In this document: one piece after another, positions 2,464-30,221 of the stretch
How the letters are laid out: each line of letters opens with the position of its first letter
How positions within the stretch are numbered: the stretch's first letter is position 1
Origin: Patescibacteria group bacterium
GTDB taxonomy: Bacteria; Patescibacteriota; Patescibacteriia; CAIXNZ01
Assembly: GCA_028714455.1 (NCBI GenBank)
Contig: JAQTMG010000002.1
Coordinates: 102,047-166,046, forward strand
DNA length: 64,000 nt
Direction: 5' to 3'
The notes under the pieces: model-generated
Databases searched by the model: none
What the model saw: only the letters and a program-made list of their open reading frames with translations
What the model was told of the DNA's origin: nothing
Made by a program: the position numbers and the translations under genes

Positions 2464-3921
2464 ATGGAACTTAACCAACTCACAATCAGAGAAGCTCACG
2501 AAAAGCTGCAAAACGGCGAGATTTCCAGTTTAGAATTGGTCAATGCTTGCATTGAGCGCATCAAAAAGACTGACAAAAAGTTGCACTGCTTTTTAGCCAC
2601 TGATTTTGATAACGCGATTAAACAAGCCAAGGAGGTTGATAAGAAAATCAAAAAAGGCGAGAAAATAAAAATGCTGGAAGGTATTCCTTGCGGCATTAAG
2701 GATTTGATTTTAACCAAAGGCATTACCACAACTGCTTCTTCAAAAATGCTGGAACATTATGTGCCCTTGTTTGACGCCACGGTCATTAAGCGACTAAAAG
2801 ATAACGGCGCCATTATTTTAGGCAAGCAAAATTGCGATGCCTGGGGTCATGGCGGTTCAACTGAAAATTCAGATTATGGACCAACGCATAACCCCTGGGA
2901 TTTAACTAGGGTACCAGGGGGTTCTTCTGGCGGCAGCGCAGCTGCTACTGTTTCTGACCAGGTTATTTATTCATTGGGTACAGATACTGGTGGTTCAATC
3001 CGCTGTCCGGGAGCGCATTGTGGCGTGGTTGGCTTTAAGCCCACTTATGGCCGAGTACCGCGTTTTGGCGCCGTGGCCATGGGTTCTTCTTTGGACACAA
3101 TCGGACCGCTCGCCAAATGCGTTGATGATGCAGCCATTGTTTTAAACGCCATTGCCGGCCTGGACGCTAATGATGGCACAACCCTACCTAAACCAGTGCC
3201 TGACTACACTAAAATGAAAGATAAAGGCGTGAAAGGCCTGACCATTGGTTTACCCAAAGAGGCGTTTGGCAAGGGCTTGCAACCAGAAGTTAAAGCGGCA
3301 ATTGACAAAGCAGTTGAAGATTTGAAAAAGCTGGGCGCGAAATTTAAAGAGGTCTCTTTGAAATATATTGATTATGGCTTGGCTTGTTATTACATTATTA
3401 TGCCTTCAGAGGTTTCTTCAAATTTGGGAAGATATGACGGCATTAGATATGGCCATCAATCAAAGGAAGCTGATAATTTGTTTGAAGTTTATACCAAATC
3501 ACGCGCCGAGGGTTTTGGCGCCGAAGCCAAGCGCAGAATCATGATCGGCACTTATGTTTTGTCAGCCGGTTATTATGACGCTTATTATAAAAAAGCCATG
3601 CAAGTGCGCACCCTGATTAAAGAGGATTTTGAAAAAGTTTTGAGCGAAGTTGATTTGATTTTAATGCCCACCTCGCCTCGGCCTGCTTTTAAACTCGGCG
3701 AAAATACCAGTGATCCACTGACAATGTATCTGGAAGATATTTATACCGTGACTATAAACATGGCTGGCGTACCAGCTGCTTCAATTCCATGCGGTTTTGT
3801 GAATAATCTGCCAGTTGGTATGCAGCTGATTGCAAAACAATTAGGCGAAGAAAAGATTTTTCAGGCGGCTTATGCTTATGAAGCGGTTAATGGCTGGAAC
3901 AAGGTTAAACCAAAACTTTAA
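2464..3921 (+). CDS. gatA: Glu-tRNA(Gln) amidotransferase subunit A
   Basis: 485 aa with the amidase signature GGSSGGSAAA and a full-length GatA-like sequence. Confidence 0.95.
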   Translation: MELNQLTIREAHEKLQNGEISSLELVNACIERIKKTDKKLHCFLATDFDNAIKQAKEVDKKIKKGEKIKMLEGIPCGIKDLILTKGITTTASSKMLEHYVPLFDATVIKRLKDNGAIILGKQNCDAWGHGGSTENSDYGPTHNPWDLTRVPGGSSGGSAAATVSDQVIYSLGTDTGGSIRCPGAHCGVVGFKPTYGRVPRFGAVAMGSSLDTIGPLAKCVDDAAIVLNAIAGLDANDGTTLPKPVPDYTKMKDKGVKGLTIGLPKEAFGKGLQPEVKAAIDKAVEDLKKLGAKFKEVSLKYIDYGLACYYIIMPSEVSSNLGRYDGIRYGHQSKEADNLFEVYTKSRAEGFGAEAKRRIMIGTYVLSAGYYDAYYKKAMQVRTLIKEDFEKVLSEVDLILMPTSPRPAFKLGENTSDPLTMYLEDIYTVTINMAGVPAASIPCGFVNNLPVGMQLIAKQLGEEKIFQAAYAYEAVNGWNKVKPKL

Positions 3922-3938
3922 ACGAAAAAGGAGGGAAA

Positions 3939-4106
3939 ATGAAAAGGACGCTTGCTAATAGGGCAGCTGCTCTTCGACATACTGGAGATGAAGAGAAGAG
4001 GCTATCCCAAATGATTGAGGAGAATGAATACGGCAAAAGGAGAGAAAAATACCGGGAAGAAATTCAAGCTCGCAGGAGGATAATGGCGAAGCATGGCGCA
4101 AGGTAA
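3939..4106 (+). CDS. hypothetical small charged protein (55 aa, below ORF-track cutoff)
   Basis: ATG lies 4 nt after AAAGGAGGG. Translation is MKRTLANRAAALRHTGDEEKRLSQMIEENEYGKRREKYREEIQARRRIMAKHGAR. Confidence 0.45.
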   Translation: MKRTLANRAAALRHTGDEEKRLSQMIEENEYGKRREKYREEIQARRRIMAKHGAR

Positions 4107-4138
4107 AATAATCCTGACGACAAAAAAGGAGGAAAGAA

Positions 4139-15754: not shown

Positions 15755-15780
15755 TCTTGAATCAAATAGTTTGCAAAAAA

Positions 15781-15804
15781 GCCGTTGATTACTCAACGGC
15801 TTTT
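15781..15804 (+). terminator. intrinsic terminator
   Basis: GCCGTTGA-TTAC-TCAACGGC followed by TTTT. Confidence 0.8.
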
Positions 15805-15829
15805 GACTTTTTGCCTCATGTGTTATAAT
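15803..15829 (+). promoter_or_regulatory. promoter with extended -10
   Basis: TTGACT, a 15-nt spacer ending in TGT, then TATAAT. Confidence 0.55.
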
Positions 15830-15835
15830 AATTTT

Positions 15836-16208
15836 ATGGATAGGGGGACATGGCTAACCCAAGCCAGGAGGTGCTCTCATGAAAAAGTTTGTCGGAACCA
15901 TGTCTCGGTTGTCGGGTCTGTAACATGCGGAAGGCAAAGTAACAGGCCTGCGATCAAGGGCGTGTCCGCTAAACCAAGGCGAAAGAGGAGCCTGTTTTTC
16001 TTTCGCCACGCGGACACGCCCACGACAATAATCCCCGTCGGAAAGGGGATAAAAGGATATTAAAAAATCAAAGGAGGAGCTTGCATGGAAAAACTTTTTT
16101 CCAGGCTCGTGGTCGATCTGTAGACTCCTGATACGGAGGAAGCAGATCATCTTAATATTCACGGTCCAAAAAGGACCCCAAACCCCCGAACATAGGTTCG
16201 GGGTTTTT
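15836..16208 (+). ncRNA. promoter-to-terminator unit with structured RNA and two SD-led micro-ORFs
   Basis: A 64-nt nested hairpin at 15958-16021 has 12-bp and 8-bp stems. Micro-ORFs lie at 15879-15923 (14 aa) and 16085-16123 (12 aa). The terminator is at 16183-16208. Confidence 0.4.
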
Positions 16209-16270
16209 ATTTGTATATTTTTTAAAAGTCGAAGTATCGTGGTATAATACTTGTAAATAACCGCTTAACT

Positions 16271-23747: not shown

Positions 23748-24953
23748 ATGGCAAAAAAATCAAAGAAAAAAACAAAAAAGTCATTCAAGAAAAGAAAGAT
23801 TGTTAAAAGAGCTCGCAAAAAACACGGCAAAAAAGTCGTTCGGCGCTCAAGAAAGGAAGCCAAGTTGCCGTCCGAAGCGCAAATGAATCAACTGCTGGTC
23901 AAAGGCCGAGGACGCGGTTTTGTGACCGAACAAGAACTTTTAATGACTTTTCCCGAAGTTGAGGAGTATCTTGATTTGTACGACAAATTTTTAGATCAGC
24001 TTGATCATAACAGCATCCAAATAGTGGCGCTCAAAGGCGGCATGCTTATGAAGGGCAAGGAAAAAGATGAGATGCTGGGCAAGATCAGCACGGGCAAGGA
24101 AAGAAAGAGGATTGATCTGGCTGATATAACCAGTGAAGATTCGATTCAAATGTATTTACGCGAAATTGGTAAGGTTCCCTTGCTAAAAGGTGAAGAGGAA
24201 ATGTCTTTGGCCAGAAGAAAGGACAAGGGCGATAAAGAAGCCATTAAAAAATTAATCGAGGCCAACTTGCGCTTGGTTGTTTCCATTGCCAAGAAATTCG
24301 TGGGCAAAAATATGTCTTTGCTCGACTTAATTCAGGAAGGCAATATGGGTTTGTTTAAAGCCGTGGAAAAATTTGATGCCAGCAAGGGTTATAAATTTTC
24401 AACTTACGCCACCTGGTGGATTAGACAAGCCATCACCAGATCTTTGGCTGATCAATCGAGAACAATCAGAATTCCGGTCCACATGGTTGAAACTATCAAT
24501 AAATTTCAGCAGGTTCAGAGACGATTAATCCAGGATTTGGGTAGGGAACCGCTACCAGAAGAAATCGCGGCTGAAATGAGCGAAGATATTGAAAAAGTCA
24601 GACACATTATTAATATTTCGCAGGAAACTGTTTCTTTGGAAACTTCTGTGGGTGAAGACGAAGACGATTCAACTCTGGAGGACTTTATTGAGGATGTGAA
24701 AAACATGGCGCCTGACCGAGCCGCCGCTCTTCAGCTTCTGCGCGATTATGTCAAAAGTATCATAACCGAGCTTTCGCCCAGAGAACAAAAAATTCTGGAA
24801 ATGCGTTTCGGCATTGGCGACGGCGTGGCTCATACTTTGGAGGAAGTCGGAAAGGAATTTGATGTGACGCGCGAACGCATCAGACAAATTGAAGCAAAGT
24901 CATTGGAAAAAATAAAACAACACCATCAAGTAGAAAAATTAAGAGATTTTTAA
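23748..24953 (+). CDS. rpoD: RNA polymerase sigma-70 factor RpoD
   Basis: Regions 1.2 to 4.2 are present ([25 protein letters not shown]). The N-terminus is unusually basic. Confidence 0.95.
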
Positions 24954-25544: not shown

Positions 25545-25979
25545 CTAGTTCATTAAAACTTTCCCGCCCAAATCAACAATAAAATCAGAAATATCATCAA
25601 TTTTCTTGGCTTGAACTGGACTAATAATATCTTCAGCCAGAATTTCAATTCTTTCAAGCGCCTCTGTTAACTTTTGTTTACCCCCAGCACCCAAAATAAC
25701 ACTGCGCACCCTGGCGTCATCTTCTTGCGGCCCATTTTTGATCAAATGGACCTTTTCCATGGGCAAGAGTAGGCGAGTGACACCTGAAGCGGTTAAACCA
25801 ATCTTATCAGCCAGATCAACTCGTCGCATCTTTTGATCCTCGGCTTGACTTAAATGATAGAGAATTAAAAATTCGCTAAAACCTAAACCACCCAAGCCGC
25901 GATCTAATCGGGCATTTAAAATGGCCTGGGTTTTGGCCATGTTTATTAATAGTTTTACTGCTGAACTGACTTTTTCCAT
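25545..25979 (-). CDS. MarR-family transcriptional regulator
   Basis: Winged-helix region RVDLADKIGLTASGVTRLL. Confidence 0.8.
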   Translation of the reverse strand: MEKVSSAVKLLINMAKTQAILNARLDRGLGGLGFSEFLILYHLSQAEDQKMRRVDLADKIGLTASGVTRLLLPMEKVHLIKNGPQEDDARVRSVILGAGGKQKLTEALERIEILAEDIISPVQAKKIDDISDFIVDLGGKVLMN

Positions 25980-25997
25980 AAAAATTGTAGTTAATAA

Positions 25998-26017
25998 ATA
26001 CTTGATAAGTCAAGTAT
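25998..26017. promoter_or_regulatory. candidate MarR operator palindrome
   Basis: Perfect ATACTTGA-TAAG-TCAAGTAT overlapping promoter-like hexamers upstream of the MarR gene. Confidence 0.5.
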
Positions 26018-26041
26018 ATACCAACTAATTATAATGTCAAA

Positions 26042-26434
26042 TAAAAAAGCACACCATTTTGAATGTCTGGTGTGCTTGAGGTACCAACACGGAATGTTTC
26101 ATCCTTCCTCTGGGGCAGTTGGCGTGCCCGTGGCTTATGCCACCTGTTGTTTTCCACTTTCGTGGGCGTTCGGCTTGTACATCCGCAGGGGGAACAACAG
26201 CTATTCCCCAAGAAACAACACCATTGTCCTACTAGGTGCAGCTAGTCCCGACTCGTTTACGGGAGTGCCTCCTAAGGATGTTATCTCTCTGCGGATATGT
26301 CCACCATCACCCCGTAGCCTTGCTCTGATTGTTTTTGGCCTGTCAGAGTAGGTTTTGGTGGCCGGTCCATTACGGAAACGAGATTTGTCAGGCCGTTATG
26401 AAATTCAGGTTCTTGTACATTAACACCTCCTTTG
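26042..26434 (-). ncRNA. about 390-nt GC-rich structured RNA candidate, class unknown
   Basis: Extended -10 box (TGATATTAT, minus strand, 26441-26449) and a terminator GCACACCA/TGGTGTGC plus a T run (26043-26075). GNRA-capped hairpins and an 8-bp long-range helix are present. There is no ORF longer than 28 aa on this strand. Confidence 0.5.
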
Positions 26435-26495
26435 TTTTTTATAATATCAAAAAATCGCCAGAAAGGCGATTTTTTTAGATCTTCAATATTATTTT

Positions 26496-26654
26496 TTACT
26501 TTTTGAACGCAAAAGACAAGAGCATGATGGTTAAAGCATTAAGAATCACCAATATTAGCGCTGTTTGCCATTTCTCCGCAAAGGGATTTCTTAAAATATA
26601 AACCGTGTAGATTATTGCAATAATTGCCGCGCCGATAAAATTTCCTTTTACCAT
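26496..26654 (-). CDS. hypothetical small membrane protein (52 aa, below ORF-track cutoff)
   Basis: MVKGNFIGAAIIAIIYTVYILRNPFAEKWQTALILVILNALTIMLLSFAFKK has two hydrophobic helices. A terminator hairpin follows. Confidence 0.4.
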   Translation of the reverse strand: MVKGNFIGAAIIAIIYTVYILRNPFAEKWQTALILVILNALTIMLLSFAFKK

Positions 26655-26806
26655 AATTTTATATTTATTTAGTTATACTATTGTAAAAGCGCCTGGGCTC
26701 GCTGTGCCTGCGGCACATCGCTCGCCCTTCGAATCCCAACGCAAACAAAGCAGTTTGTTTGCTCCCCCTCGGTTGAAGGGTTAAATTACTTAAAAATTTA
26801 TCGATG

Positions 26807-26881
26807 TGGCTCCGGGGGTGGGATTCGAACCCACGACCAAAGGATTAACAGTCCTCTGCGCTACCACTGCGCTACCCCGGA
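26807..26881 (-). tRNA. tRNA-Asn(GTT)
   Basis: The reverse complement folds as TCCGGGG...CTGTTAA...GTGGG-TTCGAAT-CCCAC-CCCCGGA-G-CCA. Confidence 0.9.
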
Positions 26882-27084
26882 AAATTTTGAATTTACTTCA
26901 CAACCACTACTTGCCCTTGCACCTTTGTGGTGCTGGGCGCTACCCCGGAATGGTATTAATAAAAAAACGAAATAGATTCGTTTTTTTACATTTGGAATAT
27001 AACATGTTTTTGAAAGAACGTCAATTTTGATCTTGATTTAAAATCGCCATATCAGCGATTTTTTGATATAGTTATAATATTCAA

Positions 27085-28182
27085 ATGAATAAAGCAATTA
27101 CATACAATATTATTGGGGTGTTGGTGGTTTTGGCCATAATCATTTTTAAGATACCGCTGATTTGGGTAATTCTTGGGATATTGATCCTTTTAATTTTTAT
27201 AATCTTTAATCCCTTTATACCCTCCGTGGAAAGCATTCCTAAGGGATTTACTGAAAAAAAATTCAATACCGGAAAAATAATTTTGAATTATATTGAAGGG
27301 CCGGATAATGGTCCTCCATTATTATTCATCCCGGGACAAATGGAATTCTGGCAGGGATATAAATTGGTAATTCCAAACTTTTCAAAAAATTATCATGTTT
27401 TTGTCGTTGACGTCCGGGGGCACGGAAAATCTACCAGAACTCCGGGCGAATATTCTTACAATATAATCGGAGAGGACCTTAAAGAATTTTTGGAAAAGGT
27501 TATTAAGAAGCCAGCGATTGTATCCGGACTTTCTTCCGGGGCTGTTCTTTCGCTTTGGTTGGCAGCCAACGCGCCCGAATTTGTTTCCATCGCAATCAGC
27601 GAAGACCCGCCATTCTTTTCTTCTATGTGGCCAAGAATTAAAGAAGAAAAATATATGTATCGTCTGTTTGAGGTCGCGGTTGATTGTCTTGGGAAACCGG
27701 AAAGAGATATATTGGGTTATTTTATGGCGCAGGGAATTCCAAAAGAGGGCCACGAGAAACTCTTTCTTATTCCTCCCTGGATAGCCAAATTTATAGTTGG
27801 GCTTTATGAACTTAATAAAAAAATCAGACCATCAAAACAATATGATATTCCTTTAGCGCCGTTCAGCGGACGGGTGGGATTCAAATTTTTGAATGAATAC
27901 GATGTTGATTTTTCAAAGGCAACGATTGACGGACGGTTAACTGAAGGATTTGATCCGGAAAACACTTTAAAAAAAATCAAATGCCCTGTCTTATTGATTC
28001 AGGCGCGCTGGTCCAGGCATAAAACCTGGGGATTGCTTGGAGCATTAGACGATAATGACGTTGAAAAAATTCGCTCAATCGTAAAGGATATTAAGGTGGC
28101 AAAAGTGAACGCTATTCATGACGTTCATTTGGCAAAACCAAAGATATTTATTAAAGTGGTGAATGATTATTTGGAAGGCTAG
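27085..28182 (+). CDS. alpha/beta hydrolase with N-terminal TM segments
   Basis: HG oxyanion region (VDVRGHGKS) and a GLSSG nucleophile-elbow-like motif. Confidence 0.7.
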   Translation: MNKAITYNIIGVLVVLAIIIFKIPLIWVILGILILLIFIIFNPFIPSVESIPKGFTEKKFNTGKIILNYIEGPDNGPPLLFIPGQMEFWQGYKLVIPNFSKNYHVFVVDVRGHGKSTRTPGEYSYNIIGEDLKEFLEKVIKKPAIVSGLSSGAVLSLWLAANAPEFVSIAISEDPPFFSSMWPRIKEEKYMYRLFEVAVDCLGKPERDILGYFMAQGIPKEGHEKLFLIPPWIAKFIVGLYELNKKIRPSKQYDIPLAPFSGRVGFKFLNEYDVDFSKATIDGRLTEGFDPENTLKKIKCPVLLIQARWSRHKTWGLLGALDDNDVEKIRSIVKDIKVAKVNAIHDVHLAKPKIFIKVVNDYLEG

Positions 28183-28209: not shown

Positions 28210-29127
28210 ATGTATATATATTGTCCCCCCAAACCAATTGAATTAGAACTCACCGACGAGTGGGGTTTTAGAATTAGACAAAAAGCAGCCGAGTACATCG
28301 CCGCTAATCAAAACCGAACTGGCGCGGAACGAGGAAGCTCCGAAGAACAGGGATTTGGCGCACTTGCTGAAATGGTTATCCGCAATAAGTTGGGTATGCC
28401 AGAAATTAATCCGGAAAGCCATCCCCTTGGTTATGACCTTTTACTTCCTTCTGGCGTTAAAGTTGACGTAAAGTGTCGTGGCGGCTCACTCCCATTTAAA
28501 GAAGAATATGAAAGTGACGATGGAATTAAGAGGGAAGCAAAACACAATTTTTTTGCCCGCCAAATTCATGATGAAAATTTAGATACGGATATTTATGTAA
28601 TGACCCATCTTGAAACGCCAAAGAATAGAGTACTGCCCGGCACTACGCGACAAAAAAAATGGATACTATATATTTGTGGCTGGGTATCAAAAGAACGCGT
28701 ATATAAAGAGGGGGTTTATTTGCCGCGTGGTTCGCTGACAGAGCAAGGGAGAACCTGGTTCACTTATCGTGGCCAAGAGATTGAATTTTATAATCGTAAT
28801 CTTAATGGTCTCAATAACATTAATGACCTTATGAGTATTGAGTTAGCAGATGTGGAAAAGGACAAAGTCCGTGGAGGAGACTTAAATTTAACATCCGTCG
28901 ATGCTGTAAGAATCACCCATGACCTTATAGGGCGTGGCGTTTTGACAAAAGAACATCTGGCCTTTATCCAAAGGGATACTGGTCTGGAAAAAAACACAAA
29001 GCCCATCTTACATGCTAATCAATATTTCCATTTATTGAAATATCTTAAGAAAAAAGGTGCTGTCACGGACACGGAAATTGAAAAGGCGCGCCAGATCCTT
29101 CAAGAAGAACCATACGCGGGAATCTGA
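28210..29127 (+). CDS. putative type II restriction endonuclease (PD-(D/E)xK)
   Basis: GYDLLLPSGVKVDVKC fits D...(D/E)xK. It is convergent with, and overlaps, the methyltransferase gene. Confidence 0.6.
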   Translation: MYIYCPPKPIELELTDEWGFRIRQKAAEYIAANQNRTGAERGSSEEQGFGALAEMVIRNKLGMPEINPESHPLGYDLLLPSGVKVDVKCRGGSLPFKEEYESDDGIKREAKHNFFARQIHDENLDTDIYVMTHLETPKNRVLPGTTRQKKWILYICGWVSKERVYKEGVYLPRGSLTEQGRTWFTYRGQEIEFYNRNLNGLNNINDLMSIELADVEKDKVRGGDLNLTSVDAVRITHDLIGRGVLTKEHLAFIQRDTGLEKNTKPILHANQYFHLLKYLKKKGAVTDTEIEKARQILQEEPYAGI

Positions 29128-30221
29128 AATAGCTTCAGTTTATTATTTTCTATTTTTTTATATAGCGTCTCGGCTTCTTTGATGCGCTGTTTAGAGACTG
29201 CCACGTAATCCGTTCGATATTTTTTAAACAAATAGACCTCTTGATTTTTTTCAATCCCAATATATTTTCTATTTTCCAAAACCGCTGCCACAAGAAAACT
29301 GCCACTTCCGCAAGTGTTATCTAGAACTATATCACCTTCTTTAGTGAATGTACGAATAAGATATCGACCAAGCTCTACCGGTTTTTGTGTAGGATGATAG
29401 ACTCTTCCCTCGCTCTCGGCGGTCTTGAAATAAACCACGTCAGTTGGATATCTTTCGCCATTACTTTTTACCTCAACTGCTTTAAAATCACCATAAGACC
29501 CAGTTAGCTGATCTTTTCTAAATCCTTTATTGTATGGCTCCCCAGGAGTCATTTGTGGATTATATATAGGCTGATTTTTATAAAAAATACATACATCTTC
29601 ATGTCTGCGAAGTGGCTGTCTTCTTGAGTTTAAAAAATTCGTTGGCTTTGACTTAACCCAGGCTATCTTGTATTTAAACAGTTTGGGTCTGGATAACATT
29701 AAATTTGCGGTAAATAATCCCTGGCTCGTCAAAGCAATAACGCCATTGTCTCGAATAACTCGTTCATAATGTTTCCACAATTGATCAAGAGGAATGACGC
29801 TATCCCAGTGATTTTGTGTTGTACCATACGGCAGATCGCACAAAATCATATCTATTGATTTGGGCGGAATATCATTCATTACTTTCAGGCAATCACCTTC
29901 AATCACGCGATTTTCGAAATATGATATTTCCTTTTCGGTTCTATTAACTTTAATTTCAGGCTCCTCAAAATTAAAATTTTTTCTTAAATACCAGTGACAA
30001 TAAGTATTTATCGGCAATCCTTCCTGTCGTGCACGACATTTAAGCTCGAGATAAGAATTCGTTCCAAGCAAATTACGCAGTTCGCTACTTCCAAGGTCGG
30101 CGATATTTTTATATAAATCTTTATTCCTTTTACCAAAAGCTAAAATAAGTCCTTTCGCTTTTGAGCTGATCTCTTTGCGATCGGAAAAATAGACAGCTTT
30201 GAAAATTTGGTTATCTCCCAT
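29100..30221 (-). CDS. DNA methyltransferase, beta-class (N6-A or N4-C)
   Basis: Motif IV DLPYG precedes motif I TCGSGSF. There is an extra N-terminal region of about 100 aa. Confidence 0.85.
   Translation of the reverse strand: MGDNQIFKAVYFSDRKEISSKAKGLILAFGKRNKDLYKNIADLGSSELRNLLGTNSYLELKCRARQEGLPINTYCHWYLRKNFNFEEPEIKVNRTEKEISYFENRVIEGDCLKVMNDIPPKSIDMILCDLPYGTTQNHWDSVIPLDQLWKHYERVIRDNGVIALTSQGLFTANLMLSRPKLFKYKIAWVKSKPTNFLNSRRQPLRRHEDVCIFYKNQPIYNPQMTPGEPYNKGFRKDQLTGSYGDFKAVEVKSNGERYPTDVVYFKTAESEGRVYHPTQKPVELGRYLIRTFTKEGDIVLDNTCGSGSFLVAAVLENRKYIGIEKNQEVYLFKKYRTDYVAVSKQRIKEAETLYKKIENNKLKLFQIPAYGSS

Follow-up and report, generated by a model that had tools for sequence, protein, structure and literature searches.

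We analysed a 64,000-nucleotide (nt) stretch of DNA from an uncultured Patescibacteria group bacterium (contig JAQTMG010000002.1 of assembly GCA_028714455.1, positions 102,047 to 166,046), hereafter called the window. At positions 26,042 to 26,434 of the window an earlier reading of the letters alone (the sequence-only reading) had proposed a GC-rich structured RNA, about 390 nt long, whose class it could not name. On the minus strand the locus consists of a predicted extended -10 promoter, a Shine–Dalgarno (SD) sequence, a mini open reading frame (mini-ORF), a long block of helices and a predicted intrinsic terminator, with a MarR gene past the terminator and genes for tRNA-Asn and RpoD nearby. 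Comparison with homologues shows a conserved transcription unit, apparently independent, with a predicted promoter and intrinsic terminator of its own. The proposal of a structured RNA of unknown class was supported by negative searches against Rfam, by homologues with covarying helices and by a covarying pseudoknot.

Homologues in related lineages

The RNA region is open in one antisense frame, and its translation of 105 amino acids (aa) was taken as a query. For a metagenome scan, six peptides of this antisense translation were back-translated into degenerate DNA patterns, which gave four loci (L100, L101, L102 and L103). With nhmmer, the RNA aligned end to end with L100 (E = 2e-68), L101 (E = 7e-59) and L102 (E = 4e-45). 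Only the 3′ half of L103 aligned in this way (E = 2e-13), and a profile of the loci spanned all of it (1e-73). Since rpoD lies 0.5-1.3 kb from the RNA in L101 and L102, contigs of RpoD relatives were looked up, and three of these (L105, L106 and L107) carry the RNA 180 nt past rpoD (E ~1e-115). The nhmmer E-values of full-length homologues range from 1e-45 to 1e-124. L106 is one base off L105 and L107 scores identically to L105, and neither was counted as distinct. The window copy was thus compared with five further distinct lineages, all from metagenomes: L100, L101, L102 and L105, which are 71-77% identical to it, and L103, which is 52% identical.

Other searches delimit the distribution. 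Among RpoD relatives, the sister groups L108 and L109 and the truncated contig L104 have no copy near rpoD or the tRNA gene. When 452 kb of patescibacterial loci were scanned with a covariance model of the 3′ domain, no additional homologue came up. RpoD (23748-24953) assigns the window to the Patescibacteria; its best match in a set of one genome per species was 69%, and a search of rpoD synteny in that set with nhmmer did not find the RNA. Among contigs with MarR homologues, nhmmer found it only in two identical Logan contigs.

Promoter, terminator and composition

The extended -10 box that had been placed at 26441-26449 on the minus strand was confirmed when the coordinates were rechecked, and its position is conserved: TTTTTG(T/A)TATAAT lies at a constant distance from AAGGAGG in L100, L101, L102 and L105. 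The promoter is usually fused to a hairpin that closes the upstream unit, an arrangement seen before the RNA in L100, L101 and L105 with differing stem sequences. About 390 nt past the promoter, as the earlier reading had it, lies the terminator (Table 1), which a simple terminator scan missed because its loop is 11-13 nt long. A terminal hairpin with a U-rich tail is kept in all lineages, and the L103 stem is unrelated in sequence (GGCGCG/CGCGCC). The GC content of the interval is 0.50-0.54, compared with 0.31-0.36 in the flanks and 0.40 in the whole window, so the described contrast with the surroundings holds. The sense strand folds with a minimum free energy of -134.9 kcal/mol (z = -3.92; none of 100 dinucleotide shuffles folded equally well) and the antisense strand has z = -1.47. 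Several conserved G-U pairs, together with these strand-specific z-scores, fix the strand of the RNA.

We also observed that the 30-nt hairpin-plus-promoter element (AAAATCGCC-loop-GGCGATTTTTTGATAT) occurs as an inverted pair in the window, at 26444-26473 and 27040-27069. One copy is predicted to drive the RNA and the other an alpha/beta-hydrolase gene at 27085.

Conserved secondary structure and a long-range pseudoknot

Base pairs were counted on three segment alignments, and the controls were 500 column shuffles and pairing partners slid by 1-3 columns. The 5′ domain (alignment A6) has 20 pairs, with 93% of cells paired and 5 pairs changed on both sides; the H3 domain (A5) has 32 pairs, with 91% and 8; and the 3′ domain (A4) has 33 pairs, with 97% and 6. 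In total, 19 of the 85 nested pairs show changes on both sides, and 91-97% of cells are paired. In all three segments, at most one of 500 shuffles matched the number of pairs changed on both sides and none matched the percentage paired or the covariation score, and the slid partners left 24-59% of cells paired. The structure is therefore kept through compensatory substitutions, as is generally expected of a structured non-coding RNA, and a search for covariation in homologues, which had been suggested as a check, yielded covarying helices as well as the pseudoknot described below.

Most of the helices named in the sequence-only reading reappeared in this model. The hairpins CCAC-GAAA-GTGG and GTGGC-ATAA-GCCAC and the helix TCCCG/CGGGA are kept in homologues with compensatory changes, and GGGGAA/TTCCCC corresponds to the invariant hairpin GGGAAU/GUUCCC. 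The 8-bp helix ATCCGCAG/CTGCGGAT is likewise kept with compensatory changes, although its arms lie about 100 nt apart rather than the 130 nt that had been given. The pairing GGCCTG/CAGGCC fared less well: it is invariant in five lineages, but it is lost in L103, the most diverged copy, and overlaps a better supported local hairpin. In the 10-bp stem of the H3 domain, AUAUCCGUUG/CGACGGAUGU is swapped in L103 for the fully different, still complementary CUAUUUUUUG/CGAAGAAUAG. Between the variable stems lie long invariant blocks (ACGGCCUGAC, CUCUGACAGGCC, GGGAAUnGCUGUUGUUCCCCC, CCACGAAAGUGGAAAACAACAGGUGG and GCCAACUGCCCCAGAGGAAGGAUGAAACAUUCC..GUUGG).

Scanning for conserved complementarity outside the nested model identified two further pairings. 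The first, PK1, connects the loop of hairpin H3b with the junction between H4 and H5. Across 7 sequences all 35 cells are paired, and compensatory changes affect three of the five pairs, in independent lineages: L105 has CUAUU/AAUAG (G-C to A-U) and L103 has AUGCU/AGCAU (C-G to A-U and U-A to C-G). Slid controls were 21-49% paired. As judged from sequence comparison, PK1 links domains as a long-range pseudoknot. The second, PK2, would pair the H6a loop with a strand 30 nt downstream and is likely a second pseudoknot; because it is invariant in 7/7 sequences, it is beyond the reach of covariation, which neither supports nor contradicts it. The pseudoknots therefore point to a compact multi-domain fold and not a string of hairpins.

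Table 1 Features of the RNA unit and its borders, in window coordinates
Feature	Positions	Strand	Sequence and observations
Hairpin closing the upstream unit	26449..26476	minus	AAAAAAAUCGCC-UUUC-UGGCGAUUUUUU, with flanking A and T runs; runs into the promoter
Extended -10 promoter (predicted)	26449-26441	minus	TGATATTAT; from sequence and homologues
Whole predicted transcript, ~394 nt	26042..26435	minus	Start placed ~7 nt past the -10 box; end at the terminator U tract
SD	26424..26433	minus	AAAGGAGGUG (AAAGGAGGTG on DNA); extreme 5′ end of the transcript; AGGAGG invariant in six lineages
Mini-ORF, 10 codons	26388..26420	minus	MYKNLNFITA*, ATG...TGA; ATG five bases past the SD; UGA stop inside conserved block ACGGCCUGAC
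H1 hairpin	26377..26394	minus	GGC..GA-CAAA-UC..G(C/U)(C/U); 100% paired; 2 pairs compensated in L103
H2 domain	26301..26361	minus	Outer CCACCA/UGGUGG, middle CCU/AGG, hairpin CUCUGA/UCAGAG with 14-nt loop; CCU/AGG alternates with CCG/CGG; CCAUCA/UGAUGG in L101
H3 domain	26179..26298	minus	Three-way junction of 10-bp stem (AUAUCCGCAG/CUGCGGAUGU), long arm H3a and hairpin H3b
H3a distal hairpin	26246..26264	minus	UCCC(G)/(C)GGGA, conserved loop nAnACGAGU; covaries: UUCU/AGAA in L100-L105, GCUC/GAGC in L103
H3b hairpin	26190..26208	minus	GGGAAU-AGCUGUU-GUUCCC; stem invariant; loop covaries with 26148-26144
H4	26154..26165	minus	CCAC-GAAA-GUGG; CCAU/AUGG in L105; 36-nt insertion in L103 exactly at the GAAA loop
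H5	26130..26143	minus	GUGGC-AUAA-GCCAC; 2 pairs compensated; loop length varies
H6a	26113..26129	minus	GGGCA-CGCCAAC-UGCCC; GGACA/UGUCC in L105; G-U intermediate in L100
H6b	26092..26104	minus	GGAUG-AAA-CAUUC; 100% paired; one-sided L103 changes keep pairing
PK1	26200-26196 with 26148-26144	minus	5′ strand CUGUU (H3b loop); 3′ strand AACAG in the H4-H5 junction AAAACAACAG
PK2 (proposed)	26122-26118 with 26084..26088	minus	5′ strand CCAAC (H6a loop); 3′ strand GUUGG
Terminator (predicted)	26042..26076	minus	9-bp hairpin AGCACACC...GGTGTGCT at 26076-26048, then T run to 26043; from sequence and homologues

Absence of a conserved protein frame

The same alignments bear on whether the locus could be a protein gene, on one strand or the other, that has decayed or been mis-called. 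The antisense frame is open for 105 aa in the window and for 136 aa in L100, as such a gene would require. It is broken, however, in L101, L102 and L105, and the 105-aa translation has no Pfam match and no homologue among 5.8 billion proteins. No reading frame is open in all copies, and most copies have stops in every frame. Insertions and deletions are mostly not multiples of three (1/5, 1/7, 1/12, 1/5 and 4/10), and variable columns are spread evenly over codon positions (50/51/48), showing no codon periodicity. On the RNA strand, the longest ORF spans 60 aa if TTG is allowed as a start (26211-26029) and 29 aa if ATG is required, which corrects the figure of 28 aa given before. The homologues thus hold no conserved protein frame of the kind that had been named as a test of the RNA proposal. 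The tests that we ran refuted the protein-gene or pseudogene reading, to which we give next to no chance, and comparison of the copies shows no apparent coding capacity beyond the mini-ORF.

A ribosome-binding site and mini-ORF at the 5′ end

The perfect SD and the micro-ORF MYKNLNFITA that had been read at 26420-26388 are present, and the SD and AUG are kept in all lineages. The 5′-terminal AAGGAGGUG and an AUG-initiated mini-ORF are conserved, with the AUG 5-8 nt after the SD in all six. Mini-ORF length is 10, 8, 6, 6, 6 and 13 codons, and in all lineages but L103 the reading frame closes at the UGA within ACGGCCUGAC; length differences of 6 and 12 nt keep the frame. SD-like hexamers are not rare in the window, where 18 of the 62 sites stand before real genes, but this frequency does not explain a 10-nt SD match at the transcript 5′ end kept in all lineages.

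This arrangement raises the question of whether the RNA is a plain or dual-function messenger RNA (mRNA), with the micropeptide as its product and the remainder as a structured 3′ untranslated region. The 10-nt SD, the spacing of the AUG and an in-frame stop in all lineages are what such an mRNA would have, but the peptides are unrelated between lineages (MYKNLNFITA, MGKRLKTA, MNVNTA, MNVKTA and MAHKAKRRKRRTR), and conservation is much higher in the 350 nt past the stop than within the ORF. We consider this explanation highly improbable. With no relation between the peptides, the target of selection seems to be ribosome loading and not the peptide product. Recoding of the mini-ORF UGA was considered and dropped, as host genes use the standard code and the region is without coding signal.

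SD-type 5′ stabilisers guard Gram-positive transcripts from decay that depends on the 5′ end, examples being STAB-SD of cryIIIA and ribosome protection from RNase J1. The present RNA resembles them in having a perfect SD complementary to the 16S 3′ end, a few nucleotides from the transcript 5′ end, and in a downstream part that is not a long coding region. It differs in that an AUG and short ORF follow the SD, and in that the host is an uncultured patescibacterium. The position and conservation of the SD fit this class, and by analogy it might affect half-life.

Comparison with known RNA families

The Rfam 15 collection (4227 models) was run on the whole window at the gathering threshold, and at E<=10 on 25950-26550 and on the L103 and L105 copies. 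At the gathering score, the 64-kb window contained three tRNAs only, with no RNase P RNA, transfer-messenger RNA (tmRNA), signal recognition particle (SRP) RNA or 6S RNA. At E<=10, the interval 25950-26550 gave weak matches only, nearly all of them small-RNA models lying over two terminator hairpins and their flanks, and the L103 and L105 copies gave no family match. The failure of the sequence-only reading to place the RNA in a known class was thus borne out. An odd base composition does not account for this negative result, because the group I intron model, RF00028, reaches 62-67 bits on genuine introns that lie a few hundred bases from the RNA.

Some features of the RNA are nonetheless those of a highly diverged housekeeping RNA missed by Rfam, with RNase P RNA the most plausible candidate. 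It is a ~390-nt, GC-rich island in an AT-rich genome with its own promoter and terminator. Length, pseudoknots, a GNRA-capped hairpin and a tRNA gene next door are all shared with RNase P RNA, diverged forms included, and a GGU-containing single strand (GUUGGUA) could in principle meet the tRNA 3′ end. The rest of the 64-kb window has no RNase P, tmRNA, SRP or 6S match, and RNase P RNAs fall below Rfam cut-offs in 10 of 35 complete genomes of the candidate phyla radiation (Lui et al. 2021, PMC8172020). However, RF00010 and RF00011 gave no match at the gathering threshold or at E<=10 in the window copy, L103 or L105, copies 52-77% identical, in a search that leaves matches below ~15-18 bits unlisted. 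The CR-I (GGAAAGUCC) and CR-V (ACAGAAnCCGGCUUA) motifs are absent from the alignment, and a scan for long-range complementarity turned up neither a P4-like helix nor a helix joining the two ends of the RNA (P1/P2). The conserved SD, AUG and mini-ORF give the RNA a translated-looking 5′ end without counterpart in RNase P, and the RNA is limited to one sub-clade, being absent near rpoD and the tRNA gene in sister lineages. A mapping onto RNase P RNA, permuted forms included, was dropped. For tmRNA, ARAGORN was negative on the window and on five homologue loci and Rfam was negative; the RNA ends in a terminator hairpin, with no tRNA-like 3′ end, and its ORF has an SD and an AUG. SRP and 6S RNA were dropped because the branched, pseudoknotted shape does not fit the SRP hairpin or the 6S rod. 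Overall, we regard a diverged housekeeping RNA as very unlikely.

A group I intron was also considered and dropped. RF00028 is silent on the RNA, compared with 66.8 and 62.2 bits on the true introns of L102 and L101, 0.3-1 kb away, and the RNA is flanked by a promoter and a terminator, not exons. Like the group I introns of patescibacterial tRNA-Asn (PMC13011429), the RNA has a pseudoknotted fold, a similar size and the same neighbourhood, and its GAUGGUGGACAUAUCCGCAG resembles a P3-J3/4-P4 segment. It differs from them in not lying within a host gene, and its 'P3-like' strand pairs upstream, with a compensatory change, rather than downstream. A hammerhead ribozyme was dropped, as CUGAnGA occurs in two lineages only.

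The introns themselves are worth recording. In L102 (3607-4230, plus strand, 66.8 bits) and in L101 (~3480-4110, minus strand, 62.2 bits) a group I intron interrupts the tRNA-Asn gene next to the RNA. The intron carries an HNH gene in both, a GIY-YIG gene is adjacent in L101, and ARAGORN misses these tRNAs. Both introns fit the 35/36 site published for patescibacterial tRNA-Asn (PMC13011429).

Downstream genes and the attenuator reading

The gene past the terminator varies between lineages, being MarR, a gene for a 126-aa membrane protein, a 62-aa protein or a PaaX-like protein, xth, or a P-type ATPase gene. A promoter-like site lies between the terminator and the downstream gene in five of the six lineages, with none noted for the PaaX-like gene of L103. 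In the window, an 11/12 match to a sigma-70 promoter for MarR follows directly after the terminator. Homologues of MarR are common in Magasanikbacteria and Falkowbacteria-like genomes, and contigs whose MarR is 70-75% identical retain the promoter and operator of that gene (TTGACA...TATACTTGACTTnTnAAGTATTAA), with unrelated sequence upstream and no RNA. Because downstream genes differ and have promoter-like sites of their own, and because MarR has its own conserved promoter and operator and relatives without the RNA, MarR is an incidental neighbour. The earlier description of the RNA as next to the MarR gene is correct as to position, but the conserved neighbours are tRNA-Asn and rpoD. As far as comparison of the loci can tell, the RNA is not tied to a particular downstream gene.

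Overlapping the MarR promoter (window 26000-26040, minus strand) is a palindrome, ACTTGACTTATCAAGT, which occurs in the same layout before MarR homologues in Magasanikbacteria-like contigs and is probably an autoregulatory operator.

These data bear directly on whether the RNA is a cis-acting leader (riboswitch-like, tRNA-sensing or a leader-peptide attenuator) in which the fold or the translation of the mini-ORF decides whether the terminator forms, and hence whether the downstream gene is read through. Attenuators such as T-boxes and the mgtA leader with mgtL share with it a short 5′ ORF, structured RNA, an intrinsic terminator and possible alternative pairings of that terminator. The block GGGCAYRCCA could form 9-10 bp with the terminator 3′ strand UGGUGUGCUC in five lineages, and in L103 its possible partner is instead the terminator 5′ strand. 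An Asn codon, AAC, lies in the loop CCAAC, UGG(U/C) follows GUU, and a tRNA-Asn gene is adjacent. A cis-regulatory element would, however, be expected before one class of downstream gene without a promoter of its own, and six different, unrelated genes are found here. When forced, this antiterminator-like helix is 3-12 kcal/mol worse (up to ~14 in L103) than the best fold that keeps the terminator, and it was judged energetically inferior. Between the ORF and the terminator lie ~310-330 nt of highly conserved, pseudoknotted RNA, a structured part far larger than is the norm for attenuators. The Rfam T-box and all riboswitch families were negative at E<=10. In particular, RF00230 matched none of the three copies (window, L103 and L105), the helix expected around UGGU is not kept, and the hallmarks of a T-box are absent; the T-box was dropped, with MarR, membrane proteins, xth and an ATPase as the downstream genes. 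Taken together, we consider a cis-acting leader unlikely.

The tRNA-Asn locus and mobile DNA

In L100 and L105 the RNA directly follows the tRNA-Asn gene, and in the window, L101 and L102 the two are no more than 1 kb apart; rpoD lies 0.2-1.3 kb from the RNA in four lineages. By this comparison, the ancestral neighbours of the RNA are apparently tRNA-Asn and rpoD, upstream. Relative to L100 and L105, the window has ~370 nt extra between tRNA-Asn and the RNA, consisting of a GC-rich block (26690-26790) and an ORF for a 52-aa membrane protein with two helices (26496-26654, minus strand), which has a close homologue in L102. A second copy of the initial 14 nt of tRNA-Asn (TTCCGGGGTAGCGC) lies 68 nt upstream of the gene (window 26869-26882 and 26937-26950), and L102 shows similar tRNA-fragment repeats. 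The duplication and the inserted block, with their parallels in L102, suggest repeated rearrangement at the tRNA locus. Near tRNA-Asn, a 305-aa ORF without a Pfam match converges on a gene for an N6/N4 DNA methylase with slight overlap (window 28210-30221), and the two may form a restriction-modification pair.

A locus of this kind could be a hot spot at which the RNA is cargo or a relic of mobile DNA: a large ornate RNA like ROOL or GOLLD, and not a core cellular RNA. Its place past or near tRNA-Asn, the group I introns with HNH and GIY-YIG genes, the tRNA 5′-end duplications, the putative restriction-modification pair and a patchy distribution would all suit such an origin. ROOL and GOLLD, too, often adjoin tRNA genes. 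With these and other orphan large RNAs (OLE and the raiA motif) the RNA shares a length of several hundred nucleotides, a multi-domain fold, long invariant blocks and a narrow range. It is shorter than they are (~390 nt), however, and a 5′ SD and mini-ORF are not known from ROOL, GOLLD, OLE or raiA. The ROOL, GOLLD, OLE, HEARO and raiA models of Rfam gave no match at E<=10. No integrase, repeats or target duplications bound the RNA, and the order of rpoD, tRNA-Asn and RNA is simply an inherited one in relatives with RpoD proteins 84-91% identical. Comparison by blastn with phage and plasmid records returned terminator-sized chance matches only, and 2.9 million viral contigs held no match to the RNA. 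We therefore find a mobile origin distinctly unlikely.

Other GC-rich units

The window contains a second candidate RNA unit of the same layout at 15836-16212 (plus strand), in the intergenic region 15755-16270. Its parts are an upstream terminator; an extended -10 box (TGTGTTATAAT); a GC-rich sequence of ~375 nt with long, perfect hairpins (z = -8.06); a pair of SD-led mini-ORFs, 14 and 12 codons in length; and a terminator. It has no Rfam match at E<=10 and no homologue among the loci collected. Kinship with the 26-kb RNA was considered and dropped, as the alignment of the two is at chance level. One of its hairpins (GAUCUG..GGAGGAAGCAGAUC) faintly recalls the SRP RNA motif GGAAGCAG. Other spacers upstream of MarR hold unrelated GC-rich, hairpin-rich blocks (L091 ~3700-3850 and L099 ~500-720). 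GC-rich islands in AT-rich patescibacterial spacers may harbour unannotated RNAs or small repeats more widely.

Proposed role and significance

We put at a little better than even the reading that the locus is an RNA gene in its own right, whose structured non-coding product of ~390 nt belongs to an undescribed family, acts in trans and loads ribosomes at its 5′ end. The RNA is rated as a new family because it has no Rfam membership and because a literature search found no paper describing it, strings of its sequence being without match in paper texts. It would act in trans as a compact fold, either a ribonucleoprotein scaffold or a catalyst, rather than as a leader of MarR. The invariant SD and AUG with an ORF of 6-13 codons would serve ribosome loading and not the making of a product. 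If a ribosome stayed bound or kept cycling at the 5′ end, it and the terminator hairpin at the 3′ end might shield both ends of the RNA, as SD-type stabilisers do at the 5′ end. Because the mini-ORF stop sits in H1, its translation might in addition make the folding or lifetime of the RNA depend on translational capacity.

Several points weigh against this reading. There are only six distinct sequences, five of them 71-77% identical, so the covariation statistics are indicative and not of R-scape grade. The promoter and terminator are predictions, and we infer trans function only from the lack of a common downstream gene. Alternative pairings that a switch could use do exist, those of GGGCAYRCCA with the terminator 3′ strand and of CAUCC with GGAUG. 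At the 5′ end, the 13-codon ORF of L103 passes through H1 and stops further on. The in-frame conservation of the mini-ORF carries modest weight, with a chance of ~0.1 of arising at random, because its length has only about three independent states, and the case for the SD and mini-ORF as stabilisers is one of analogy.

Few bacterial RNAs both reach several hundred nucleotides and have conserved pseudoknotted folds, and those whose function has been worked out are ribozymes, ribonucleoprotein cores or large assemblies. We see an even chance that the RNA represents an undescribed class of large, multi-pseudoknotted RNA of a Patescibacteria sub-clade, one that engages the ribosome through its 5′ SD and mini-ORF, has a catalytic or ribonucleoprotein fold and is possibly linked to tRNA-Asn. 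Patescibacteria are ultra-small, uncultured episymbionts with stripped-down genomes, and retention of a 390-nt RNA gene with long invariant blocks in such genomes therefore points to strong selection. A new family would extend the very short list of orphan large RNAs, and an obligatory ribosome-loading site at the 5′ end of a non-coding RNA would offer a concrete handle for experiments. These results also suggest that annotation based on Rfam leaves conserved RNA genes undetected in the genomes of candidate phyla.

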